From positions 64,001 to 128,000 of the forward strand of contig CAXXFK010000018.1 of the NCBI GenBank assembly GCA_963663965.2: a DNA stretch of 64,000 nt. Direction: 5' to 3'. Origin of the DNA: Sedimentisphaerales bacterium (GTDB lineage Bacteria > Planctomycetota > Phycisphaerae > Sedimentisphaerales > SM23-30). Below the pieces are notes generated by a model. The model was not told where the DNA came from. It saw nothing but the letters and a program-made list of their open reading frames with translations, and searched no databases. Position 1 is the stretch's first letter; each line of letters opens with the position of its first letter. Shown here piece after piece: positions 19,133-36,230 of this stretch. The translations under genes and the position numbers were made by a program.

Positions 19133-19560
19133 CACAAAGCCACAAAGGCACAAAGATATATACAGCCATTTAGACAGGATTACAGGATCAACAGGATAAA
19201 AAGTTCGGGACCATTAAATTATCTGGTAAGATGAAGTCATTACTTTGCTTATAAAGCATAAGAACAAAAAGCTTGCTAAGAAAACAAAGAAATGAGGGAT
19301 TGTAGTACGGAAAGGGAAAATAAAATACATTTTCACCGTGTAGTAAGTGAAGGGAGTTAAGGAATGGCCGGAGAGATGAAAAAAAACAGCCTTTTTAGAC
19401 AGGATTACAGGATTTACAGGATTTAATGGGAATTCATATAAAATATAACAGCCTTTTGAACCGCAGATGGACGCAGATAGACGCAGATAAAAACCGATTT
19501 AAGTAATTATAATAAAATAACTTAGAACCACGTAAAAACGCGGAAAGCCACGGAAGAAAA
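19133..19560 (+). repeat. Cluster of five short triple tandem-repeat units
   Basis: (CACAAAG)x3; (ACAGGAT)x3 twice; (CGCAGAT)x3; degenerate (CACGGAA)x3; periods 8-10 bp. Confidence 0.75.
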
Positions 19561-19777: not shown

Positions 19778-20518
19778 ATGGCTTGTGAAAATAATCAGTT
19801 AAGTGACGACGGGAAGGCGCGGCATCGGGGGGCGGATCCGCGGGACGCGGGGTTGTTTGGGGAAGCATGGGCAGCAGTGCTACGGGAGGCGGCGGGGGAC
19901 CTGGCGTGGCTGCTGGGGCGGGGGTACAGCGAGAAGTCGGGATTGAAGCTGGTGGGGGACCGGTACGCACTGCGGCAGCGGCAGCGGCAGGCGCTGATGC
20001 GGGGGGTGTGTACGGCGGCGGCGGGGCAGGCGCGGCGGGCGAAGCGGGTGAGGGCGGCGGCGCTACGAGGCGAGGTGGTGGCGATCGATGGGTATAATGT
20101 GGTTACGACGCTGGAGACGGCGCTGGGGGGCGGGGTTTTGGTGCGCGGGCTGGATGGGTGCTGGCGGGATGTGGCCGAGCTGCATGGCAGTTACCGGCCG
20201 GTGGCTGAGACGGAGGGGGCGCTGGAACGGGTGGGGGTGTATCTGGCGGGAGCGGGAGTAAAGGAGGTGCGGTGGTACCTGGACCGGCCGGTGTCGAACA
20301 GCGGGCGTCTGAAGGGATGGATGGAGGCGCTGGCCGGGCGGCGCGGCTGGGAGTGGGAGGTGGCGCTGGAGTATAATCCGGACCGGATGTTGATAGAGGC
20401 GGATGAGATTGTGGTGAGCAGTGACAGTGTGGTTCTGGATGGGTGCGGGCGGTGGTTTGACCTGGTGGGGGAGCTGATTGAGGGGCTGGATGGGGTTTGG
20501 CGGGTGGATTTGGGGTGA
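19778..20518 (+). CDS. DUF434 domain-containing protein
   Basis: 'DLAWLLGRGY', 'LVGDRYAL..RQR', 'IDGYNV..TLE', 'LDRPVSNSGRL', 'SSDSVVLD'. Confidence 0.8.
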   Translation: MACENNQLSDDGKARHRGADPRDAGLFGEAWAAVLREAAGDLAWLLGRGYSEKSGLKLVGDRYALRQRQRQALMRGVCTAAAGQARRAKRVRAAALRGEVVAIDGYNVVTTLETALGGGVLVRGLDGCWRDVAELHGSYRPVAETEGALERVGVYLAGAGVKEVRWYLDRPVSNSGRLKGWMEALAGRRGWEWEVALEYNPDRMLIEADEIVVSSDSVVLDGCGRWFDLVGELIEGLDGVWRVDLG

Positions 20519-20653
20519 GGGGAATGACTTTGGGAAATATACAAGTTAACTTTGAGGTTAGGATATAAGCTTACGTATCATTTCGAATAAATATTCAAGC
20601 ATTGAATTTACGAAATTTTCATTTCTTATGGCGGCAAATCAATTTTCTTAAAA

Positions 20654-20669
20654 TCAGACTATAGTCTGA
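20654..20669. promoter_or_regulatory. C-box-like operator, perfect palindrome TCAGACTATAGTCTGA
   Basis: 16-bp palindrome with GACT..AGTC core upstream of the XRE gene; degenerate second copy TTACTTTAGTCTG at ~20691. Confidence 0.6.
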
Positions 20670-20761
20670 AGACAGTCGGATAATAAATGTTTACTTTAGT
20701 CTGCAAGCGAGAATCAGCAGCAGAAAGCTTGCTTATCTATTCAATGAAAGGACTTACTAGC

Positions 20762-20977
20762 ATGCTGGGAGATACTTTACGTTACTACCGTAAAAAAGTT
20801 GGTTTAACGCAAGAGCAATTAGCTGAGAAAGCAGGCATCCATCGAACTTATGTAAGCCTGCTTGAACGAAACCTCAAATCACCAACAATAGACACTTTAT
20901 TTCTCATATGTAATGCGCTTCATGTGAAACCCAGTAGTTTGATCAAAGCATTAGAAACTGAACAAGAAAAGAAATAG
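20762..20977 (+). CDS. XRE-family HTH regulator, RM controller (C) protein-like
   Basis: 'GLTQEQLAEKAGIHRTYVSLLER....PT' typical of C proteins; directly upstream of the methyltransferase. Confidence 0.85.
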   Translation: MLGDTLRYYRKKVGLTQEQLAEKAGIHRTYVSLLERNLKSPTIDTLFLICNALHVKPSSLIKALETEQEKK

Positions 20978-20996
20978 AGTGCTCTTGGATATAAAT

Positions 20997-22529
20997 ATGA
21001 AAATACCAATAATAGATTTATTTGCGGGGCCGGGAGGATTAGGGGAAGGCTTTTCGGCATATCAAAATAAAGAAGCTGAACAACCATTCGAAGTCATAAA
21101 ATCGATTGAAAAAGATCAGATTGCACACAAAACATTATTATTAAGGTCTTTTATTCGTAAATTCCCTTCAGATAAAAAGCCAGAAAAATACTTTAAATTT
21201 ATTCAAACAAATTGGAATCTGAATAAGTTTAATAATTTGCTTGATTGTAAGGAAGGGGCGGAAGCACGAAGAGAGGCATTATGTCTTGAACTTGGTAAAG
21301 ATAATGAAGTAATTGATGAAGAAATAAACCAATCCTTATCTGAAATAATACTAAATAATAGACATTGGGTTCTCATTGGTGGTCCACCCTGCCAAGCTTA
21401 TTCGCTGGTTGGCAGGTCAAGAAATAAGGGTAAACAAGGTTGGACATTAGATAATGATTATAGGTCGCATCTATATCAAGAGTATTTGAAAGTTATAGGT
21501 AGATATCAGCCATCAGTATTTGTCATGGAGAATGTGAAAGGAATTCTATCAGCACGATTGAATGAAGGATTAATATTTGAAAAAATAATAAAGGATCTGG
21601 AACGACCAAACGAAGTCAAGTTAGAGGGAATTGTTGAACCAATAACGGGAAAAAAAATAACATATCGATTGTATTCATTCGTGAAAGAACCCGAATTATT
21701 TATAAACCTTAAACCAAAAGATTATATAATTAAGTCTGAAGATTATGGAATACCACAAAATAGACATCGAGTTATTTTGTTAGGCATCAGAGAAGATCTG
21801 AATGTAAAATTAACCCTTTTAAAAAAGAAAGAAAAAAAAATAACCGTATGGGAAGCTATTGGTGATCTACCTTCGGTGATGAGTGGGATTTCTAATAGAA
21901 ATATTAATTTGTCAGAGTTTGATCAACAGCTGAAAAAGTACGCTGAAATACAAGAAATGTTATCAAGTGAATTCAAAAAACTAGTCTTAGATAACGATGT
22001 GTCGAAGGTAATAAAAAAAAGAATATATCAAATTAATAAAAATAATGGCAGAAAACCTTCGGTGTTTAATAAAGAATGGTTTCTTTGTGAAGATTTAAAT
22101 GGTCATATTTGTAATCATGAGTCACGTAACCATATTCGTTCTGATTTGCTGAGATATTTTTTCGTTTCGTGTTTCGGGGAAGCAAAAGACAGAACGCCTA
22201 AGCTGAGCGAATGGCCAGGTGAATTATTTCCAGATCATAAGAATGCGAAATCCGGACATTTTGAAGATCGCTTCAGGGTGCAATTAAGGAACGAACCTTC
22301 AACTACAATTACCTGTCATATAGCAAAAGATGGTCATTATTATATTCATCCGGATCCAAGGCAATGTCGAAGTTTAACTGTTAGAGAAGCAGCAAGATTG
22401 CAAACATTTCCTGATGATTACTTTTTTTGTGGTAATAAAACGAGTCAATATCAACAGGTTGGTAATGCTGTTCCTCCATTATTGGCCTATCAATTGGCTG
22501 ATGTAGTATTCAAAGTATTAGAAGATTGA
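20997..22529 (+). CDS. dcm: DNA (cytosine-5)-methyltransferase
   Basis: Motif I DLFAGPGG, IV GGPPCQ, VI ENV, VIII Q.RHR, IX/X 'LTVREAARLQTFPD..QVGNAV'. Confidence 0.96.
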   Translation: MKIPIIDLFAGPGGLGEGFSAYQNKEAEQPFEVIKSIEKDQIAHKTLLLRSFIRKFPSDKKPEKYFKFIQTNWNLNKFNNLLDCKEGAEARREALCLELGKDNEVIDEEINQSLSEIILNNRHWVLIGGPPCQAYSLVGRSRNKGKQGWTLDNDYRSHLYQEYLKVIGRYQPSVFVMENVKGILSARLNEGLIFEKIIKDLERPNEVKLEGIVEPITGKKITYRLYSFVKEPELFINLKPKDYIIKSEDYGIPQNRHRVILLGIREDLNVKLTLLKKKEKKITVWEAIGDLPSVMSGISNRNINLSEFDQQLKKYAEIQEMLSSEFKKLVLDNDVSKVIKKRIYQINKNNGRKPSVFNKEWFLCEDLNGHICNHESRNHIRSDLLRYFFVSCFGEAKDRTPKLSEWPGELFPDHKNAKSGHFEDRFRVQLRNEPSTTITCHIAKDGHYYIHPDPRQCRSLTVREAARLQTFPDDYFFCGNKTSQYQQVGNAVPPLLAYQLADVVFKVLED

Positions 22530-22531
22530 TA

Positions 22532-22939
22532 ATGACTGATAATGTAAGTAAAGAAAAGCGTAGTTGGAATATGTCACGCATCCACTGCAAAAATACAAAG
22601 CCTGAAAGGCAAGTGAGGTCGATTTTACATATGATGGGATTTCGTTTTCGTTTACATCGAAAAGACTTGCCTGGCAAGCCAGATATTGTATTACCAAAGT
22701 ATAAAACGGTTATATTTGTACATGGTTGTTTCTGGCATAGGCATAAAGGGTGTAAATATGCTTATACACCTAAAAGTCGACAGGAATTCTGGAAAAAAAA
22801 ATTCGAAGATAATTCAAAAAGAGATAAAGACGTAATAGATGAACTTAAAATGCTGGGGTGGAAAGTCATTATAATCTGGGAATGTGAAATTAAAAAACCG
22901 GATATTATTGTTGGTAAATTAGCCACTATTGCAACATAA
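22532..22939 (+). CDS. vsr: Very short patch repair endonuclease
   Basis: 'RSWNMSRI..KNTKPE', 'LPGKPDIV', 'FVHGCFWHRH', 'WECE'. Confidence 0.95.
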   Translation: MTDNVSKEKRSWNMSRIHCKNTKPERQVRSILHMMGFRFRLHRKDLPGKPDIVLPKYKTVIFVHGCFWHRHKGCKYAYTPKSRQEFWKKKFEDNSKRDKDVIDELKMLGWKVIIIWECEIKKPDIIVGKLATIAT

Positions 22940-22940
22940 A

Positions 22941-23672
22941 TTAATTTTTTCTAAACTTTTCAAATTCTTCCGGTAAAAGAGTTAAAATCATATCTGGAGT
23001 CATGAAATACAGATCCCAAGTTAAGTTGAATTGATCGATTATATCAGCGAGTCTTCTTGGACTTCCACCGCCTTTGCCTCCCGATCCTTTTTTGTTACTT
23101 CTTGTTTTTGGATTATAATATAAGGTGTATGTTGCTTCAATCAGTGATTTATTAGTAATTAATTCTTGTCTTGATGCTATTTGTTCGTGAAGATCTCCCA
23201 ATTTATCAATATCACCTGATAACAATGCCATAGCTCTTTCTGGTTTGTCTTTATGAAAATTATAAATAAGATATGGGCCTCTTAAAAGATGGCGATAGTA
23301 TGTTTGAAAATTGGATATTTCAGGAACCCATCTGTATCTTTTACCTGGTTTATAGCGATTACCATGCGTTTTTGGGCATAACTGATCAAAAAAGAAGAGT
23401 GATAACCATGCCCAGATTCCTTTATCTTTTAAGACAAGTGGATAATCTAGGTCACAAAAAAGATCATGAAGGTATCGAGCCATTTCCAACTTATTGGTAA
23501 ATGTTACTTTTTTGACGAAAGAATTCGAAACACCATCTGAATAATCTGGATTATTCAGGATATGGACTGGGGGTGATTCGGGATTATCAGTATCTAAACT
23601 ATCTAAGAATTCATGAAACTTGAGAATGCCAGAGTCTTTAAGTTTTCTAAGTTTGATGTTTTGCATAGTCAA
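22941..23672 (-). CDS. Hypothetical protein (243 aa), last gene of the ATPase operon
   Basis: Overlaps the upstream gene by 4 bp; conserved-looking 'WAWLSL.FFDQLCP', 'YRHL', 'EQIASRQ', 'GKGGGSPRRL'. Confidence 0.75.
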   Translation of the reverse strand: MTMQNIKLRKLKDSGILKFHEFLDSLDTDNPESPPVHILNNPDYSDGVSNSFVKKVTFTNKLEMARYLHDLFCDLDYPLVLKDKGIWAWLSLFFFDQLCPKTHGNRYKPGKRYRWVPEISNFQTYYRHLLRGPYLIYNFHKDKPERAMALLSGDIDKLGDLHEQIASRQELITNKSLIEATYTLYYNPKTRSNKKGSGGKGGGSPRRLADIIDQFNLTWDLYFMTPDMILTLLPEEFEKFRKN

Positions 23673-24433
23673 TCTCCATTCTGAATGAAGTCGCAGTAGA
23701 TATCAGAAATTTTGTATTTTCTTGCAAAAGCAATGACAACACCATCTACCCATTCATCGAAATCTTCATTATTATTATCCAAATCAAATTCAGGGATTTT
23801 ACCTGTACCTGGTAATGATTCGGCAAATAAAAGCCATTTCTTTTTCCATATATCATTATCGTTTTCTTCATCTTCTGGTGGATTACTTGTAATATATTGC
23901 AGAACACTTCTAATTATTGCCGGGTAAACCAGTGTAATAAATTCCTTAGAGCAACAAATTTGATCACGACTACCTGCTTTACTGTTTATCAATAGTATGG
24001 GGTAATTATTGTCAAATTCAACTTTCCATATTTCTTCAATATCATCAACGGATTTTACTGGTAAAATGCACTCTCTGTTACTTTCAAGTTCATCAAATTT
24101 GTATGGTTTCAGGCGGTCTGCAAATGCAAGCAATTTGCCTGAAGTGTGTTGTGTATCCGTTACTTTAACTCGAAATAGTATGCCCTCTATGTCATCGAAT
24201 TCATTAAGCTCACAATTATTTGGTTTAGTGATATTTGATATTGTGCCAAAGGGATATCGCATCCATAGGCAACGCCTATATGCCTCTATAAAAACATACG
24301 CATCTTCAGGTAAGTTGTATTTGGATAGTGAGAGATCGGCATCAAAATTCAGATGATTACCTTTTTGGGATACGACAATTGAAATATCGTTACGATTTAA
24401 TTTTTTCCGACCAGTATAGTTAAGCCGTGGCAT
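23669..24433 (-). CDS. Hypothetical protein (254 aa)
   Basis: Translationally coupled on both sides; 'MPRLNYTGRKKL' N-terminus; no recognised domain. Confidence 0.75.
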   Translation of the reverse strand: MPRLNYTGRKKLNRNDISIVVSQKGNHLNFDADLSLSKYNLPEDAYVFIEAYRRCLWMRYPFGTISNITKPNNCELNEFDDIEGILFRVKVTDTQHTSGKLLAFADRLKPYKFDELESNRECILPVKSVDDIEEIWKVEFDNNYPILLINSKAGSRDQICCSKEFITLVYPAIIRSVLQYITSNPPEDEENDNDIWKKKWLLFAESLPGTGKIPEFDLDNNNEDFDEWVDGVVIAFARKYKISDIYCDFIQNGD

Positions 24434-26351
24434 TTTCTAAACCTCCTTCATTTTCTGTAATTGACGGTTTTACAAGCAAATCGCGGTTAGGATCAAAACC
24501 GATTAGCTTTAAGCGAAAATCGCAATTGAGAATTTCGGCGATAATAACATTGCCCCTAGTCTGGATAATTTTAAGACCTTTAGATTCAGGCTTCATTTTT
24601 TCAATGCGAAAATCGTTGATATTATATTTCGGTTTACGGTCTCTACGATCATAAAATATTTTAATCTGCATTTGCGCGGGCAGATTTAAACTACCTTCGC
24701 CCTTGGTAAGTGTAAAGCCGCCATTGATTTTGTTTAAACGATACCGCTTTGGCTTGTGGGGTATTTCTAAATGGGGCGGTCCGGTTCTATCGCCACGATC
24801 TTCTTTTTTCTTTCTTTTTTCTGGTCGTGATATGGTAATATCAGATGATGGTATTGAAAAGAAATCCAAGAGTAAATTATGGTCTTCCTGCTTAGCACTT
24901 TCTTCAGAAATGCCAATGATTTCACTTACGCTTTTCTTGATAAAAGTGAGGGTTTTTGAGCCATAGGTGTACCTGTTTTTGAAGTTATCAGATGTTGTTG
25001 ACCATTCGGTGTGTGATGGGTTTTCAGCATTACCGAGAAAGTCTGCTATATGTGGTTCGTCAGCGATTACTAGTGAAACCACACTTCGATTAGTCGGTAT
25101 TCTTTTTTCATCTGGTATAATCAGGCCTTTTCGAATAAATACGGGATAACCTTTAGAGTAGCTTGGGTGTCTTTGTATGAAGACTTTGAAATAAGTCTCA
25201 TGTTCCACTTGTTTTATTTTGTCTTTGATGTATACCGGCACTTTAATGGCAATATTTTCTTCACTAACTAAGCGCTTACGAATAATATTTTGAATCTCAG
25301 CAGGTACTAATTTTTCGGACCATTCTGGTGCTGCAGTTGATACTGGACATATTGTTTCAAGGCATTCATCACTAGGCAACTTGTTGGCCCATTTAGCGAG
25401 TTCAATTTTCGCATGCAATTCTTTGTTGTCGCTTAGGAAGTCTGAATTAAGAATAGCTTCTATTGAACCAGATTCAATTCTAGTATTATTGTCGGGAGTA
25501 GCTATATCAACATATAATTCACCTGTTATAATTGGCCAAAAGTAATGTGAAATCAGTGCCTGCAGTATTGATTGTTCATTAATGTCATCATCTATAAATG
25601 GCACAATTAATGAAAGGCCGGGTTCACTTGAACGTGCCAAGTGAAAATCATTGCAGAATCTAGTGATTTCGTCTGAGTGGCCATTATCATCAAGAGGAAC
25701 AGGTATATAATCGTTTTGTATTGGAATCTGTTTTGCATACCAACCATCTGATGTAAAATCTTCGCTATTAACTTTATGAGACCTCAATAAACATTGTCCA
25801 AAGAATATTTTTTGGTTATCTTCCGAACGAACTGACAGGCCGAAGAATGCTTTGATATTGCTGGCCTTTGGGAAAACAATTTTTCCAATTCCATGTCTGC
25901 CTCTATCTGAATCATGTTTACCCGATTGACCTTCTGCTCTGAAAAAGTAATAAAATGGATTTGAATCTTTTTCCTCTGGTTCAGAATATTCTATTAAATT
26001 ACCATTCAATCCAGATGTATTAAAATCCTCAATAACAACATATTTACATGGTTGGTTTCTGTCCGGGCAATCTTGTAATCCGTTATTTTTTGCATTTAAA
26101 TGATTCCATAGTTCTTCAGTAAAATAAAATCGAGCTTTTTCGGGTTGCAAAGCACCATTATCATTAGATAAATAAATCCTTATTCCAACCGGATTGTTCA
26201 AATCAATTCTGGCATCTAAGGAATTTTGGATTGCTTCTCGAATCAAACTTGTCGAGATAGAGTTGTCTGACTCAAAAAATTTGCTGTGCATTGGTTCCCT
26301 TTTTTTGCCCTGTGGCAAAATACGATCAAAAAACCAACCAAAACCGGACAT
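24420..26351 (-). CDS. GHKL (HATPase_c / MORC-like) ATPase domain protein
   Basis: N-box 'LIREAIQNSLDA', G1-like 'EDFNTSGL', G2 'GRHGIGK'; AAGGAG RBS. Confidence 0.75.
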   Translation of the reverse strand: MSGFGWFFDRILPQGKKREPMHSKFFESDNSISTSLIREAIQNSLDARIDLNNPVGIRIYLSNDNGALQPEKARFYFTEELWNHLNAKNNGLQDCPDRNQPCKYVVIEDFNTSGLNGNLIEYSEPEEKDSNPFYYFFRAEGQSGKHDSDRGRHGIGKIVFPKASNIKAFFGLSVRSEDNQKIFFGQCLLRSHKVNSEDFTSDGWYAKQIPIQNDYIPVPLDDNGHSDEITRFCNDFHLARSSEPGLSLIVPFIDDDINEQSILQALISHYFWPIITGELYVDIATPDNNTRIESGSIEAILNSDFLSDNKELHAKIELAKWANKLPSDECLETICPVSTAAPEWSEKLVPAEIQNIIRKRLVSEENIAIKVPVYIKDKIKQVEHETYFKVFIQRHPSYSKGYPVFIRKGLIIPDEKRIPTNRSVVSLVIADEPHIADFLGNAENPSHTEWSTTSDNFKNRYTYGSKTLTFIKKSVSEIIGISEESAKQEDHNLLLDFFSIPSSDITISRPEKRKKKEDRGDRTGPPHLEIPHKPKRYRLNKINGGFTLTKGEGSLNLPAQMQIKIFYDRRDRKPKYNINDFRIEKMKPESKGLKIIQTRGNVIIAEILNCDFRLKLIGFDPNRDLLVKPSITENEGGLENATA

Positions 26352-26363
26352 ATGAAACTCCTT

Positions 26364-26606
26364 TCATAATTCAAAATTTCGTTTTGATTTTGAAAACGTG
26401 AACCTCATTTTAGAAATTTTTATTTCTTTTTCTAATGCCGAAAAAATTTTATTGATATCTTGCTCTGAATATTCATACGAGCTTTTGTTTGAACAATTAC
26501 CAAGTAGTCTAATCTTTTCAATTATCTCATTAGTTCTTCGACTTGCAATACGTACAAAACGATCTTTGCGAGACTCGTCTTTTTTTGAAATATTACTAAT
26601 TTTCAT
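26364..26606 (-). CDS. Small basic helical hypothetical protein (~80 aa), first gene of the ATPase operon
   Basis: 'RKDRFVRIASRRTNEIIEKIRLLGNCSNKSSYEYS'; ends 12 bp before the ATPase start. Confidence 0.7.
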   Translation of the reverse strand: MKISNISKKDESRKDRFVRIASRRTNEIIEKIRLLGNCSNKSSYEYSEQDINKIFSALEKEIKISKMRFTFSKSKRNFEL

Positions 26607-26772
26607 AATATGTATTCTTAAATATGGAAATATATGTAATATATTCAAAATGCTACATGTGTCAAGACGGTTTTTTGAAAATAATATTAAATATTGTTCA
26701 AAATATTGTAAAAGCTTCAATATAAAACATTTGCATTATTATTAAAAGTGCTACTTTCAGCAAAGAATTATT

Positions 26773-27066
26773 ATTAATGTGAAATTTCATTATCTCTATC
26801 GTGACGCCAGCAATTATTAAGATATTTCATGATGAAGTATTGGCAGGAGAATTGAAGTTGGAGGATATGGAGCCTTATTTGTGGGAGGGAGAATTTTTTG
26901 TCCCATCGGAAGTTGGTTTAAAGATTTGCAACCGGAAGTATTTACGGTCGATGATCATATCTGGCATTCGATTGAAGGAGTTGAACCAACCGATGATTTA
27001 CCAACTTGTGATGTAACTGCGGAAGAATTCAAGAATCGGTTTCGGAGTGCATCTTTGCAGGATTAG
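26773..27066 (+). pseudogene. Hypothetical-protein remnant with two frameshifts
   Basis: Joins into 'KFHYLYRDASNY/KIFHDEVL..FVPSEVGL/KDLQPE..DHIWH' if single-base indels at ~26818 and ~26921 are corrected. Confidence 0.5.
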
Positions 27067-27101
27067 AATCAAGGGCAAGTGTTTCGGTGAAAGGGATTAT
27101 T

Positions 27102-27218
27102 ATGAGTGCGGTTGAGAGGCGGGGGTGGACTCGGGATGAGTTGATTTTGGCGGTGAATTTGAATTGTAAGACGCCGTTTGGGCGGATTCATGATCAGGTT
27201 CTCAAAAAGCCACGCTGA
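27102..27218 (+). pseudogene. 5' remnant of an HNH-type putative restriction endonuclease
   Basis: MSAVERRGWTRDELILAVNLNCKTPFGRIH resembles the WTREELILAFNLYCKxPFGxIH N-terminus; truncated at a REP/MITE. Confidence 0.6.
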
Positions 27219-27219
27219 A

Positions 27220-27463
27220 GGGCCTGTTGCCCAAAGACAGATCAAGCAGGGTTGCTTGACCAGTCTGACTGGCCCAAGTATTTCTGTCGTCCCTGCGGGA
27301 CTTGTTCTGAGTGGGTTTGGCCTGAATCCCCCCAATGAATTGGGGGGCTACGCACTGACAGCCCGCCTGAGGCGGATCTTCGACCCTGCGGGCTTCAGGG
27401 GTATCCGCCGGGCGGCAGATGGTATTTTTCGTGACGCTCGACCTGTATTTGTGCAACAGGCCC
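27220..27463. mobile_element. MITE (244 bp) inserted into a REP-like palindrome
   Basis: 21-bp TIRs GGGCCTGTTGC(C/A)CAAA(G/T)ACAG with 2 mismatches; TGAA duplicated on both sides; target CCACGC-TGAA-GCGTGG. Confidence 0.75.
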
Positions 27464-27602
27464 TGAAGCGTGGGCTCCGTAGGGGCGCTATCTGCGGTTT
27501 GGCTCAACCGTCCGTACGAGGGAGGGCCGATAATCGTGAGGGTTAAGGAAGGGGTGTGTAAAAAAGGGTGAAAATAAGTGAAATTATATGTGGTAGCGCT
27601 GT

Positions 27603-31091: not shown

Positions 31092-34000
31092 ATGACGTTA
31101 ACTTTGAGAACTATTCTGACGGTTTTATGTTTTGTGTCTGCCGGTATGCCATTGTGCGCGGCGCCCTATTTTGGCGAAGAGACAACGGCGTTACAGCCGG
31201 ATGGGACGTCGGTGACGGTGGTGTTGTGGGGAGATGAATATTATATTCGGGCGGAGACACCGGATGGGTATACGGTGGTGCGCGATCCGGAGACCGGGTG
31301 GATCTGTTACGCGGAGTTGAATGCAGATGGGAGCGACATGTTGTCGACAGGATTGCCCTATGAAGGGGAATCGCTGGAGAGTGGGGTGACGACGGGGAAT
31401 GGGGCCGTGGGCAGTCAGGCACAGATCAAGATTCAGGTGCGGCGCGAGCGGATGCGGGGTGTGGGTAAGAAGATCGATTTGAAACGGGACGCGCGTCTGG
31501 CGAAGGTGCAGGAGAACCGGCGGTTATTGATGGGTGAGCGTTATGACGAGGAGACAGGCATGGTGCTGGCGGCGCCGGGTGATGAGTCGGGCGTGATCAT
31601 ACTGGGAGAGGCGCCAGCGATTGAACCGGCATTGACCGGGACGATGACCGGGTTGACACTGCTGGTGGATTTTCCGGATTTACGCGGGACGATTCCCCGG
31701 GAGGCTATCGATGATTATTGCAACACGCCGGGCTATACCGGCTATAGCAACAACGGCTCGGTGCGGGATTATTTTTATGATATTTCCAATGGGAAACTGA
31801 CCTATCTCAACACTGTGACTGAATATTATACCGCCAGGAACAGCCGGTCTTATTATACAGATGAGTCGATTGGTTATGGCACCCGGGCGCAGGAATTGAT
31901 TAAAGAGGCGCTGGATTATCTGGAGAGTCAGAACTTTAATTTTTCTCAGATTACGGTCAAGAATGGCCGGTTTCAGGCTTTGAACGTCTTTTACGCGGGC
32001 AACGCGGACAATAACTGGGCCAAAGGGATCTGGCCGCATAAAGGATATTATGGCAATTGGGTGTCGCAGAATTATGGTATCCGGACCGGGGATTATCAGA
32101 TTTCCAATATCGGGTCCAACCTGCGTCTGGGTACATTCTGTCATGAGAATGGCCATATGATTCTGGGATTGCCGGATTTGTATGATTATGGCGGGGAATC
32201 GCGGGGTGTGGGTAATTATGACCTGATGGCCGGGGGCGGCAGTTCGACCAATCCGGTACCGGTTAATCCGTATTTCCGGGCGTTGAACGGCTGGGAAAAT
32301 GTGGTTGATATCACCGAAAGCGGTGGAGGGGTAGAATATTCCCATACCTCCAATTCGTTTACAACGTATAAATATACGAACGCGTCCTATACGAATGAAT
32401 ACTTCATGATCGAAAGCAATATCAAGACGGGGCGGCGTTCGGCCATGCCGGATGAGGGCTTATTGATCTGGCATGTTGATACCGCCGGCAGTAACGATAA
32501 TGAACAGATGACGGCAAGTTCGCATTATAAAGTATCCGTTGAGCAGGCGGACGGTCTGTTTCAGTTGGAAAACAATAATAACAGCGGCGGATCAAACGAT
32601 TTGTTTCATGCCGGGAATGCTGACCAGTTCAGCGCCACTACGACACCGGATTCGGATTGGTGGAGTGGTGAAGAATCGGGCCTGTTGATCAGTAATATCA
32701 GTGCGGTGGGGACACCGATGACCTTTATCGCAGTGAATGTCAACAATGACTTCTGGGTGACACCCGGTGGTGCCGGTGTGCGGTTTACCCGTCTGGAAGA
32801 CGGACCGATTGTGCCTGGGAGCCAGGCGCTGACATTACATAATAATAACTCCTCGCGTACCGTTTCGTTTACGGCTCAGACGGGTTCGAGCTGGTTGGGT
32901 CTCTCGCCGACCAGCGGTCAAATCAGTCCGCAATCGACCGCAACGATTACGGTGGTTCCACAGGGAAACCTGTCGACACTGGATCCTCAAGCCCTGACGG
33001 GAACGATTACCGTGACGGATCTTGGCACCAGTATTCAATATTCACGAAACGTGGTTCTGTCGATTAAAAACCGCCTTGGGGTAGCGTACTGGACGCTGGA
33101 TGATACCGGCACAGATGAAGCGCTGGATGCGACGGGTAGCGGTTTCAATGGTATTTTGTCAGGTGGACTATCCTACGCGACCAATAAAGCGGAGGGACGC
33201 TTTGGCGATTGCCTGCAATTTGACGGGATTAATGATTATATCGATGTTCCCAATGGATTTGAGGATTTCAGTGTGGGGTATACCATTTCATTCTGGGCCA
33301 ATCCAAGCGCGGCAAAAACCTGGGCACGGTTTATCGATTTCGGCAATGGCGCACCCAGTGATAATATTCTGGTTACGCGGCGCAGTAGTTCCAAAGATCT
33401 GCAAGTCGACGCATATAAAGGCGCCACCCGGCTGGGGACACTGATCGTGACGGATGCTATTGAGTTGGATGTCTGGCAGCATTTTGTCGTGGCGGTTGAT
33501 GATGCCGGGCAGGCTGTTTTGTATAAGAATGGCCAGTCGATCCAGACGGGGAATCTGGGGATCCTGGAGAATATTACCCGAGGTAACAATTATATCGGGC
33601 GAAGCAACTGGGCCGCGGACGCTTACTATGAAGGGTATCTGGATGATGTGCGGATTTATAACTACGCGCTGACCGGGGAGGAGATTGGTGATTTATATGC
33701 CAATGGCGGAGGGAGTTTTAATTTAAGCCCGGCCAAGGCCGCTTCCGGTGTCTACTGTGACGCGCAGCTGGAGTGGATTCCGGGACCGCTGACCCAAAGG
33801 CATCTGGTTTATTTCGGGCAGGATGAGACCCTGGTTGATACCAGCGATCGTTATGGCGGCGCTTATTTGGCGGTGAGTGAAACCAACCGTTTTGATCCGC
33901 CGATGCTGGCCACCGGCCAGGATTATTACTGGCGGATAGACGATGAACTGATTAACGGACAGGTTGTCAAAGGTGTGACCCGTCGTTTTCATACGACCGG

Positions 34001-36230
34001 GTCGATTACTTATGAAGTATGGAAAGGAATCTCCGGAACGGCGATCTCCGCCCTGACCGATTCTCCGGCGTATCCGGATCATCCGGATATCCGGGAGCAT
34101 GCGTTATCGTTTGACGCTCCGGTTAACTGGGAGGATAATTATGGCACGCGGATGCGTGGCTATCTGATCCCCAAGACCAGCGGCCGGTATACGTTCTGGA
34201 TTGCCGGTGATGACAATTGCGAACTGTGGCTCAGTGAAAACGCCGATCCCCGCTACGCGACCCAAATTGCCTATGTGCCGGGATGGAGCGACTGGCATCA
34301 ATGGGTGAAATATAGCGAACAGGCATCCAATTCGATCGATCTGAAGGCGGGCAAGCGATATTATATCATGGCCTTGCATAAAGAGGGAGGCGGCGGAGAT
34401 AACCTATCGGTAGCCTGGCAGGGGCCGGACAGTCCGAGTCGCAGTGTGATTGGCGCGGAATTCCTACAGCCGTATTATGGCAATAAACGTCCACAGTTTG
34501 CATTCGCGTATGAAGAAAAAGCAAAGGTGGCAGAAGGAGAGACATTGCTAGATTATTTAAACAGCCAGGCAGAGGATCCGGACGGCGACTGGATTACGTA
34601 TCGTAAACTTGGCGGGCCGGCCTGGCTGTCGGTGAGAGCGGACGGTACCCTGGGTGGCACACCTGACTGGCAGGATGGCGGCGATAACTATTTCCGCATT
34701 GGCGCTGTCGACAACCGGGGCAGCCAGGGTGAAATGCGATTGAAGATTCCAGTGGCCAATAAGCATGGAGGGGAACGGGGCCGTCGCGATCTGGCGGATC
34801 TGGCAACAAACTGGCTGGCCGATGATCCGTCGGGAACTGGCGTGAGTGAGATTTCGGATCTGGATTTGGATCACACAGTGGATATGCAGGATATGGGGAT
34901 TATGACCGGGCGCTGGCAAACGGGTATTGTCGATGGTCTGGTTGCCTCTTACTCGATGGATAACCAGGGCGGGACCGTGGTGCATGACGGCTATGGCGAT
35001 CATGACGGCCAGCTCTTGAACAGCGGTGAGTTTAACTGGACAAGCGGTGTTCAGGGCGATGCCTTGCGGTTTGATGGTTATGATGATCTGGTCGATTGCG
35101 GCTCAAACAATGAGGTTACGAATCTGAGTGGCGACTTCAGTGTTTCGTTGTGGATGAAAGTTGACGCCATCTCATTGACCAAGACCATGCATATACTGGG
35201 TCAGCGGAATAGCAACCAGCATATCTGGAGCTTGCAACTCTGGGGCGCCCAGGATGGGCATTTAACCGGATTCGTGAACAGCAGCGGTAACTGGGCGCTG
35301 ACTGAGACGAATGTTACTCCTGAGCCTGGCCGCTGGTATCATGTGGTGATGAATTATGCCGATCGGGGAGATCGAAAAGTACGCATCTATGTTGATGGGA
35401 CCGAAGCCGGGACTTTACAGCAGTCGACCGCCAGCGGTAGCAAGCAGGTCAGTACTTCGATCCCCCTGACGATGGGTGACCGAGTTGGCGGTGACCGGAC
35501 GTTCGCCGGTTTGCTCGATAATGTGGCTGTTTACAATAAAGTGTTATCCAGCAATGAAATTCACGAACTGGGCCGGCAGGACGCGTATGTTGCCCATTGG
35601 CCATTCGATACCGATGCCACTGACAGTCAGGGTGTCAATCATGGAACGTTTAAGAATGGAGCTGGAATTGTCGTTGAAACGGGAGAGGTTGTAATTGGCG
35701 CCGGCGCTTTAAAGCTGGATGGTGTAGATGATCAGGTATCCTGTGTTACGGGCGCCGATATTACCCAGCAGGGCGATTTCAGTGTCTCTTTATGGATCAA
35801 GCCGGATGATATTTCTTTAAGCAATACCATGCACCTGATCGGCCAGCGAGACGCTTTCAATCATATCTGGAGTTTTCAGTTATGGGGCGCCCAGAGCGGG
35901 CATCTGACCGGTTTTGTCAATAGCAGCGGCGGCTGGGCGTTAACCGAATCAGATTTTACGCCCGAGGTTGGGCACTGGTATCATATCGTGATGACCTACA
36001 GCGATTCCGGGGACCGGAAGGTCTGGCTTTATGTGAATGGCGTGATGATGGGGACGATGCAGCAATCCGCGGCGGCGGGTGACCGGCTCGTGAGTCAGTC
36101 TATTCCTCTGACGATTGGAGACAAGACCGGTGGCCAACGGGCCTTTGCCGGGACCATCGATGATGTCAGAATTTATGGCAAAGTGTTGAGCGCTGAAGAT
36201 GTTCAGGCACTGGCCAATGGCATTTATTGA
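31092..36230 (+). CDS. Secreted M6 (immune inhibitor A-like) metalloprotease with BACON-like, LamG x3, PA14, Ig-like and dockerin-like modules
   Basis: 'GSVRDYF', zincin 'CHENGH..LGLPDLY', 'GLLIWHVD'; LamG 'G.LDDVRIYN.AL'; PA14 'YTFWIAGDDN..LWLS'. Confidence 0.88.
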   Translation: MTLTLRTILTVLCFVSAGMPLCAAPYFGEETTALQPDGTSVTVVLWGDEYYIRAETPDGYTVVRDPETGWICYAELNADGSDMLSTGLPYEGESLESGVTTGNGAVGSQAQIKIQVRRERMRGVGKKIDLKRDARLAKVQENRRLLMGERYDEETGMVLAAPGDESGVIILGEAPAIEPALTGTMTGLTLLVDFPDLRGTIPREAIDDYCNTPGYTGYSNNGSVRDYFYDISNGKLTYLNTVTEYYTARNSRSYYTDESIGYGTRAQELIKEALDYLESQNFNFSQITVKNGRFQALNVFYAGNADNNWAKGIWPHKGYYGNWVSQNYGIRTGDYQISNIGSNLRLGTFCHENGHMILGLPDLYDYGGESRGVGNYDLMAGGGSSTNPVPVNPYFRALNGWENVVDITESGGGVEYSHTSNSFTTYKYTNASYTNEYFMIESNIKTGRRSAMPDEGLLIWHVDTAGSNDNEQMTASSHYKVSVEQADGLFQLENNNNSGGSNDLFHAGNADQFSATTTPDSDWWSGEESGLLISNISAVGTPMTFIAVNVNNDFWVTPGGAGVRFTRLEDGPIVPGSQALTLHNNNSSRTVSFTAQTGSSWLGLSPTSGQISPQSTATITVVPQGNLSTLDPQALTGTITVTDLGTSIQYSRNVVLSIKNRLGVAYWTLDDTGTDEALDATGSGFNGILSGGLSYATNKAEGRFGDCLQFDGINDYIDVPNGFEDFSVGYTISFWANPSAAKTWARFIDFGNGAPSDNILVTRRSSSKDLQVDAYKGATRLGTLIVTDAIELDVWQHFVVAVDDAGQAVLYKNGQSIQTGNLGILENITRGNNYIGRSNWAADAYYEGYLDDVRIYNYALTGEEIGDLYANGGGSFNLSPAKAASGVYCDAQLEWIPGPLTQRHLVYFGQDETLVDTSDRYGGAYLAVSETNRFDPPMLATGQDYYWRIDDELINGQVVKGVTRRFHTTGSITYEVWKGISGTAISALTDSPAYPDHPDIREHALSFDAPVNWEDNYGTRMRGYLIPKTSGRYTFWIAGDDNCELWLSENADPRYATQIAYVPGWSDWHQWVKYSEQASNSIDLKAGKRYYIMALHKEGGGGDNLSVAWQGPDSPSRSVIGAEFLQPYYGNKRPQFAFAYEEKAKVAEGETLLDYLNSQAEDPDGDWITYRKLGGPAWLSVRADGTLGGTPDWQDGGDNYFRIGAVDNRGSQGEMRLKIPVANKHGGERGRRDLADLATNWLADDPSGTGVSEISDLDLDHTVDMQDMGIMTGRWQTGIVDGLVASYSMDNQGGTVVHDGYGDHDGQLLNSGEFNWTSGVQGDALRFDGYDDLVDCGSNNEVTNLSGDFSVSLWMKVDAISLTKTMHILGQRNSNQHIWSLQLWGAQDGHLTGFVNSSGNWALTETNVTPEPGRWYHVVMNYADRGDRKVRIYVDGTEAGTLQQSTASGSKQVSTSIPLTMGDRVGGDRTFAGLLDNVAVYNKVLSSNEIHELGRQDAYVAHWPFDTDATDSQGVNHGTFKNGAGIVVETGEVVIGAGALKLDGVDDQVSCVTGADITQQGDFSVSLWIKPDDISLSNTMHLIGQRDAFNHIWSFQLWGAQSGHLTGFVNSSGGWALTESDFTPEVGHWYHIVMTYSDSGDRKVWLYVNGVMMGTMQQSAAAGDRLVSQSIPLTIGDKTGGQRAFAGTIDDVRIYGKVLSAEDVQALANGIY

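Follow-up and report, generated by a model that had tools for sequence, protein, structure and literature searches.

A GHKL ATPase trio facing a controller–C5 methylase–Vsr operon in a Sedimentisphaerales bacterium, a putative divergent sister of the phage defence candidate PDC-M33

The 64,000 nucleotides of contig CAXXFK010000018.1 of a Sedimentisphaerales bacterium analysed here (the window) carry an AT-rich block in which two operons converge. The plus-strand operon encodes an XRE controller protein, a C5 cytosine methyltransferase (C5 methylase, Dcm) and Vsr. The minus-strand operon encodes an 80-amino-acid (80-aa) protein followed by an ATPase (subunit A) and two further proteins (subunits B and C), and A, B and C are called the trio below. 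An earlier note, made from the DNA letters, had described this layout and taken it for an undescribed methylation-linked defence system. The layout was confirmed: all seven open reading frames of the block (20654..26606) are present and open, GC content is 34.3% across 20520-27065 versus 48.6% genome-wide, and the vsr stop, ending at 22939, lies 1 bp from the last minus-strand stop at 22941. The A and B genes overlap by 14 bp, and 2 bp separate B from C. A contig from a public run, possibly from the source sample, covers 20387-27301 without differences. The controller, the methylase and Vsr were all borne out by matches to protein families (PF01381, PF00145/TIGR00675 and TIGR00632). Scans with Pfam, NCBIfam and PADLOC recognised no helicase and, besides Vsr, no nuclease in the block, which upholds the note on this point apart from Vsr. 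No RNA holder was listed. The features are collected in Table 1.

Table 1. Features of the block, with positions in the window.
Feature	Position	Strand	Evidence
Perfect 16-bp palindrome, probable C-box operator	20654..20669	.	Inverted repeat, arms 8+8, 100%
Degenerate C-box-like site, putative secondary operator	20693..20703	.	Direct repeat, 91% identity to first site, 35 bp downstream
XRE/HTH_3 controller (C) protein, 71 aa	20762..20977	+	PF01381 E 2e-17; PADLOC Control_protein E 6e-12
C5 cytosine methyltransferase, 510 aa, group D2, DrmMII-like	20997..22529	+	PF00145 E 4e-49; TIGR00675 above cut-off
Vsr T:G mismatch nicking endonuclease, 135 aa	22532..22939	+	TIGR00632 E 2e-44; PF03852
Subunit C, 241 aa, basic (isoelectric point 9.0), mostly helical, remote DUF6339/PDC-M33C homologue	22941..23666	-	hhalign; PF19866 of homologues
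Subunit B, 254 aa, acidic (isoelectric point 4.8), no family	23669..24433	-	Weak hhalign link to PDC-M33B
Subunit A, GHKL+S5 ATPase, 643 aa	24420..26351	-	PDC-M33A E 1e-25 (residues 32-303); predicted model
80-aa basic protein (isoelectric point 10.0), recurrent trio companion	26364..26606	-	Recurrence beside related trios

Subunit A is an intact GHKL ATPase with an S5 domain. The three motifs quoted in the earlier note (REAIQNSLDA, EDFNTSGL and GRHGIGK) were all found in A. Its predicted model (predicted local distance difference test score, pLDDT, 90) showed a GHKL plus S5 fold, with a Bergerat fold containing the N, G1 and G2 boxes. The model matched SMCHD1 (Z 16.2, root-mean-square deviation 3.7, 312 residues aligned), MORC3 and MutL (both Z 14.7) and topoisomerase VI-B (E 4e-13), which confirmed the GHKL assignment of the note and added the S5 domain to it. 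A low-confidence linker (~505-527) is followed by a C-terminal beta-sandwich (~533-636). Residues E39, N43, D46, D109, G151/154/156, K157, E443 and H447 are invariant in 119 of 119 aligned A homologues, and motif IV reads G-L-S instead of G-T in 111 of the 119. E443 and H447 form an ExxxH motif; such a motif late in S5 is given as the mark of paraMORC2 in the text of Iyer, Abhiman and Aravind (2008, PMC2292703). No relatives of A were found in viral contigs, and none of the three subunits had a useful match when solved structures were searched by sequence.

The two partners of A had both been called unknown. This held for B, which matched no Pfam, NCBIfam or PADLOC family and in the Atlas fell into unnamed clusters only, with no model. 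When the A-B complex was predicted, the score was 0.50 versus 0.07 for the best control, contacts agreed by at least 72% between runs, and the partner pLDDT was at least 77. The mark for such predictions was reached by 116 of 157 solved pairs and 2 of 215 mismatched pairs, and at scores up to 0.60 it was reached by only 18 of the 157 solved pairs together with both mismatches. This result lends weak support to a contact between A and B, and B is a probable adaptor binding the ATPase. For C the label did not hold, since some of its homologues carry PF19866/DUF6339, although C of the window itself lies below the threshold of that model. C would be 243 aa long if started at an upstream TTG. Its AlphaFold2 model (pLDDT 93) gave no match at E <= 0.001 in the Foldseek PDB and viral libraries, and the best VIA-align Z was 4.0; the absent match shows neither a new fold nor the lack of a nuclease. 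No nuclease family was matched by C. R125, H126, R204, R205, Q212, D218 and E234 are conserved. Most of the conserved residues are Arg, His, Trp, Tyr or Gln, a composition like that of a binding surface. C may be the DNA-binding subunit of the trio.

To see how the trio occurs elsewhere, we used the best 80 of at least 465 related loci in a collection of species genomes (the own clade of the window). B follows A in 63 of the 80 loci and C follows as well in 55, always in the same order. The C profile also has matches in 1,880 clusters formed at 50% identity. These results showed that A-B-C is a conserved and widespread operon unit. A C5 methylase was present in the fetched regions of 27 of the 80 loci and Vsr in 21. 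Among full trios flanked by at least 3 kb on both sides (n = 32), 19 had a C5 methylase no farther than 3 kb away (16 of 27 with a 5-kb limit) and 18 had no Vsr beside them; these distance cut-offs undercount slightly, since the methylase lies at 4.2 kb in one locus (L051) and ~6.6 and 19 kb away in two genomes. In an evenly drawn sample of the phylum, 9 of 12 loci were full trios, and Dcm and Vsr were present in 3 of the 6 with long flanks. The linkage of the trio to C5 methylases and Vsr is far above chance, in support of the earlier note. Of 300 other genomes from the phylum, 12 had a match to the alignment of A, a sporadic distribution, and none of the 20 nearest relatives searched had a match to PDC-M33A, the ATPase of a related candidate system described below. 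The cassette is horizontally acquired; it is AT-rich and sporadic, as are mobile defence genes. Neither a tRNA nor clear attachment repeats were found at the block edges.

A 28-row clade of the ATPase tree, almost all Planctomycetaceae-like, had no Dcm in the fetched flanks. It contains A-B-C, A-B and A-only forms, its A is under purifying selection, and the A-only and A-B forms are possibly domesticated. That C is lost earlier than B agrees with a B that binds A. A-alone or A-B loci of this kind (L017, L022, L025, L032, L035, L036, L041-L043, L045 and L055, and L013, L021, L026, L028, L038 and L040) often stand beside a conserved 326-aa gene. Genes found beside methylase-free trios are, among others, hsdM, Mrr, SIR2-TIR, AbiEi/AbiEii and a SNF2-PLD helicase. 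In two loci an hsdM-type or N6/N4 methylase adjoins the trio in place of the C5 methylase (L060:8424-9935, L072:13211-14128), and in another the trio is separated from vsr-dcm by a gene for a protein with HATPase_c_3 and HATPase_c and by two unknown genes (L051:13548-17153).

The trio resembles PDC-M33, a PADLOC phage defence candidate (PDC) with models PDLC04582-04587 (Payne et al., bioRxiv 10.1101/2024.01.29.577857). The main text of that preprint describes its 145 PDCs as untested, derives the set from genes lying inside BREX, DISARM and Type I restriction-modification (RM) loci, and does not name M33. Both cassettes have three adjacent co-oriented genes, first that of the GHKL ATPase, then that of a middle protein and last that of a DUF6339 protein, of similar size (models 627/289/250 aa versus 643/254/241 aa here), and share dcm, vsr and the 80-aa gene as common neighbours. 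A matched PDLC04582 with E 9.6e-26, the best stretch being residues 32-303, whereas true members reached E 1e-93 to 1e-134. At E <= 0.05, PDLC04583 matched none of 36 aligned members of B and was found in none of five genomes, PDLC04584-04587 matched none of 118 aligned members of C, and PDLC04584 was found in none of five genomes. The PADLOC models would thus not call the cassette, since B and C match no M33B or M33C model. True M33 loci were then collected, four of them verified by the PADLOC models, and deep profiles were compared by hhalign. A matched M33A at 99.9%, C matched M33C at 94.7% (E 6e-8, 183 columns), and B was weakly linked to M33B at 48.9% (E 2e-4, 159 columns), with cross-gene controls at E >= 0.018. 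A shallow comparison with three M33 sequences had missed the B and C links, and the deeper one found both. ExPxH is present in 56 of 56 ATPases of the M33 clade.

By these profile comparisons, the window trio appears to be a divergent sister clade of the listed candidate PDC-M33, with A and C homologous and B probably so; the position of the window ATPase itself in the tree is unsure owing to its long branch. The word undescribed in the earlier note does not stand: the PADLOC models of an already named system match A only, and the trio is a remote sister of that system with the same gene order and neighbours, so that a ground for refutation named in the note itself applies in part. There are also differences. 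The usual order in the M33 clade is dcm-A-B-C-vsr, with a C5 methylase in 68 of 80 loci (65 of those within 53 bp of the trio) and Vsr in the fetched region of 38 of 80. In the own clade of the window the linkage to the methylase is looser (19 of 32 versus 14 of 15 well-flanked trios), and in the window the methylase sits on the convergent operon under a controller protein. Literature searches found no paper on 'PDC-M33' or 'DUF6339' and none describing the trio; an earlier listing in the supplements of Payne et al. or Iyer et al. is possible. In conclusion, the cassette is real, intact and uncharacterised; it is of the PDC-M33/paraMORC type, in a variant form missed by the PADLOC models for B and C.

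Nine loci with weaker M33A matches form a third clade with the same trio (B 99.3% and C 68.1% versus the M33 profiles); ExPxH is kept in 7 of its 9 ATPases. A PP-loop enzyme is present in all nine of these loci, Dcm in none of the nine, and Vsr was not seen in any of them. The PP-loop protein matched SspD (E 7e-7 and 2e-6) and BrxP (E 5e-6), all weakly. A cysteine desulfurase is adjacent in two loci and a GmrSD_N-like gene in four. The mark of this clade may be sulfur, and the clade is then a candidate form of the system with a sulfur mark. That a PP-loop enzyme takes the place of the cytosine methylases suggests a scanning core that can be reused. The loci are L106-L112, L117 and L118 (in G425, G342, G095, G256, G176, G029, G326 and G086), sometimes with HNH genes.

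The earlier note had proposed that the ATPase and its partners form a restriction module with 5-methylcytosine (5mC) as the self mark. We looked at trios without an adjacent methylase. Among ten genomes chosen for a trio without adjacent Dcm, five had no match to PF00145: G704 (98% complete), G428 (100%), G640 (93%, its trio lying close to the end of a contig), G824 and G825. The N-box, G2 and ExPxH motifs are retained in each of the 28 full trios that have no Dcm within 5 kb. The ratio of nonsynonymous to synonymous substitution rates was 0.03-0.32 in five unsaturated methylase-free pairs, most of which have short flanks on one side, versus 0.08-0.27 in methylase-linked pairs; two further pairs were saturated. 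By these ratios, methylase-free trios are under purifying selection. The partner methylases belong to several groups, and D1, D2 and D3 occur with both the own and the M33 clades. In a quick tree with SH-aLRT (approximate likelihood-ratio test) support only, sister ATPases carry methylases of different groups (L002/L033 with support 100, L015/L066, and L044 versus L054/L073). An EcoRII-C or MvaI/BcnI nuclease of their own was found in 8 of 9 loci with D1-type methylases, and plasmid M33-type copies adjoin genes annotated as Sau3AI- and AlwI-type nucleases. The same two families, the only ones searched throughout, were absent from the 18 loci of the own clade whose methylases belong to D2 or D3 (the window is D2) and present in only 1 of 80 M33 loci. 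Our results showed that the methylase is an exchangeable and dispensable partner of the trio. The methylase-free genomes, the purifying selection, the partner swaps and the separate Type II nucleases speak against 5mC as a strictly obligatory self mark. They weaken the strict reading, in which 5mC keeps a restriction effector from doing harm, as does the lack of a C5 methylase within 3 kb of 13 of the 32 well-flanked trios.

The plus-strand operon has putative control elements of its own. The palindrome at the start of the block lies upstream of the controller gene and has a C-box core. Its 12-bp form occurs once in the genome, and its 10-bp core is identical to that of OM, a C-protein operator given in Table 1 of PMC9803871. 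Judged from this likeness, the controller protein probably binds the palindrome as its operator. The longest frame of the controller starts at 20687 (96 aa, the form used in the family scans), and the ATG at 20762 is preceded by an AAGGA-type ribosome-binding site. The motifs of the methylase are intact (FAGPGG, PPCQ, ENV, QVGNAV), and it is the sole PF00145 gene found in the genome (94.6% complete). Genome-wide counts of CCWGG (0.85 of expectation) and CTAG (0.48) were set aside as pointers to its target, being unspecific for a recently acquired gene. The 80-aa gene recurs in both clades, at 9 of the 80 own-clade loci and at 11 of the 80 loci of the M33 clade. Ten plasmid loci were found, and in three of the five that were read it lies directly upstream of an M33-type trio. 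Its product, which had only a weak, unnamed match in PHROGs, may be a regulator or a DNA-binding accessory. It also heads other plasmid operons (L225:5995-9320, 800+229 aa; L228:5983-12138, 621+461 aa, ATP-binding protein, UvrD); the large proteins of these operons gave no match to the ATPase profiles of the trio.

Around the block, multi-copy intergenic repeats at 19150-19560 and 27200-27480 (~6-27 genomic matches per segment) flank the cassette together with a DUF434 and DUF5616 gene. The latter (19778-20518, plus strand), of very high GC and strong G skew, is directly upstream of the AT-rich block. Long joints were not counted as excision, because they had fewer than 30 letters on one side and lay within multi-copy repeats. 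At the other edge (26801-27066, plus strand), two overlapping short frames resemble one frameshifted small gene, single copy in the genome. Farther away, 31092-36230 (plus strand) encodes a 1712-aa protein which by eye has an M6-like protease start and PA14-like and laminin-G-like repeats.

The trio was compared with known systems. Mza-type (MORC-Z1-DUF4420) systems include a Z1 helicase and a DUF4420 nuclease in their gene list, and neither gene was found in the block or among the recurring neighbours of the 80 loci. One distant locus (L116:1595-8651) has the trio directly behind Z1, DUF4420 and dcm-vsr, a link to MORC-Z1-type systems. The paraMORC neighbourhoods of PMC2292703 likewise place a GHKL+S5 ATPase beside Dcm and Vsr, and the ExxxH motif stated there is invariant in the clade of the window. 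In contrast to them, no helicase of superfamily II (Z1) or DUF4420 nuclease is found in the window or recurs nearby, and partners such as B and C are not described in the text of that paper. Very-short-patch repair by MutL and Vsr also brings a GHKL clamp, Vsr and Dcm together, but A differs in carrying a C-terminal beta-sandwich of its own, in having two dedicated partners and in its sporadic, mobile occurrence. No known family of a cognate Type II endonuclease was recognised by sequence next to the window methylase. The text of Rakesh et al. (2024, PMC10853773) describes a DNA-scanning core of DndD/CxC ABC-ATPase and DndE that recruits phosphorothioation enzymes or cytosine methylases. This ATPase-centred core is similar to the trio in pairing with a sulfur-modification enzyme or with cytosine methylases, but it is built from an ABC ATPase and ribbon-helix-helix proteins rather than GHKL, so the likeness is one of analogy and not homology; GHKL, MORC and Vsr are not mentioned in the main text of that paper.

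The explanation we favour, at a probability of about 40%, is that the trio scans DNA in an ATP-driven manner as the core of modification-linked defence loci, coupling a mark to the handling of foreign DNA. A-B-C would be a core or clamp that serves exchangeable DNA-marking enzymes. MutL, MORC and topoisomerase VI-B dimerise on ATP into a DNA clamp, and ATP would likewise drive A to dimerise into a clamp on DNA, with B as the adaptor on A and the basic, helical C contacting DNA. Having no fixed sequence specificity, the core would take as partner any adjoining writer, whether a C5 methylase of one of several families or an SspD-like PP-loop enzyme, and would link the mark to the fate of incoming DNA, unmarked molecules being stalled or passed on to a nuclease. 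Because recognition would depend on the partner, the trio would not be lethal on loss of the methylase. In the window the partner would be the methylase under the controller protein, and Vsr would repair the T:G mismatches that arise from deamination of 5mC. In its favour are the fixed gene order of the trio, the C5 methylase close to most M33-clade trios, the PP-loop enzyme of the third clade, the differing methylase groups of sister ATPases, the separate nucleases of D1-type partners, the precedent of the DndD/CxC and DndE core and, weakly, the A-B prediction. Several points weigh against this explanation. Trios without a methylase are conserved, also in genomes with no match to a C5 methylase (G704, G428); in genomes without a C5 writer the core must act without one, and the explanation needs a partner elsewhere. 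Type II C5 methylases need no ATPase helper. The anti-phage role of this clade and of PDC-M33 is, on sequence evidence, that of a candidate only.

Other explanations were weighed against the scanning core. The trio could be a multi-subunit ATP-dependent restriction enzyme with an unrecognised nuclease in B or C, which cuts unmethylated sites while 5mC protects self; Iyer et al. propose this role for paraMORCs (PMC2292703). The M33 trio usually lies between dcm and vsr, the normal place of a restriction gene, the EcoRII-C/MvaI-type nucleases are nearly missing from M33 loci and missing from own-clade D2/D3 loci, and the window has a controller protein with a C-box and no other recognised restriction gene. 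This enzyme is nevertheless unlikely, given the trios without nearby Dcm (half of the tested genomes lacking PF00145 altogether), the ATPase motifs kept in all Dcm-free full trios, the swapped partner methylases, and a C subunit whose conserved residues suit a binding surface and match no nuclease family. The trio resembles a DNA-scanning core more closely than it does a classical restriction enzyme. Alternatively, it could be a self-sufficient anti-phage sensor-effector, carried as cargo or as a backup when a phage blocks RM, with the mark not being read. The purifying selection on stand-alone trios, the defence genes beside methylase-free trios, the origin of the PDC set in BREX, DISARM and Type I RM loci according to the text of Payne et al., and eight loci adjoining complete Type II systems speak for this idea. 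We find it rather doubtful, since coupling to the writer is too tight for cargo (dcm within 53 bp in most M33-clade loci and a PP-loop enzyme in every third-clade locus) and no toxic effector domain was recognised.

A further possibility is a MutL-like repair helper that brings Vsr to T:G mismatches or activates it there, or else removes the lesions that DNA-marking enzymes leave behind, with no direct role in defence. The fold of A is near MutL and MORC, and MutL works with Vsr in E. coli according to the text of Iyer et al. (PMC2292703). Vsr recurs in both clades, and the Dcm-free Planctomycetaceae-rich clade keeps A-B and A-only forms under purifying selection, as in a domesticated housekeeping gene. 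But Vsr is absent beside more than half of the well-flanked trios and was not seen in the PP-loop loci, and the trio is sporadic and here AT-rich, like mobile defence genes; the repair role is quite improbable. Finally, the trio could be the engine shared by a class of immune systems based on modification that has gone unrecognised, with a MORC-like clamp, an exchangeable writer and C as a new mark reader or nuclease. The mark would be 5mC in two clades and sulfur in the third, and foreign DNA would be restricted without a nuclease of known family. We regard this class as a tentative and somewhat unlikely proposal.

That MORC-like ATPases and methylases act together in defence was proposed in 2008 and is still a proposal in a 2026 preprint. 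The cassette is small, intact and helicase-free, which makes the question of MORC-methylase defence directly testable. If the trio is indeed the engine of such a class of immunity, it would provide a bacterial model for ATPases of the MORC/SMCHD1 type reading DNA methylation.

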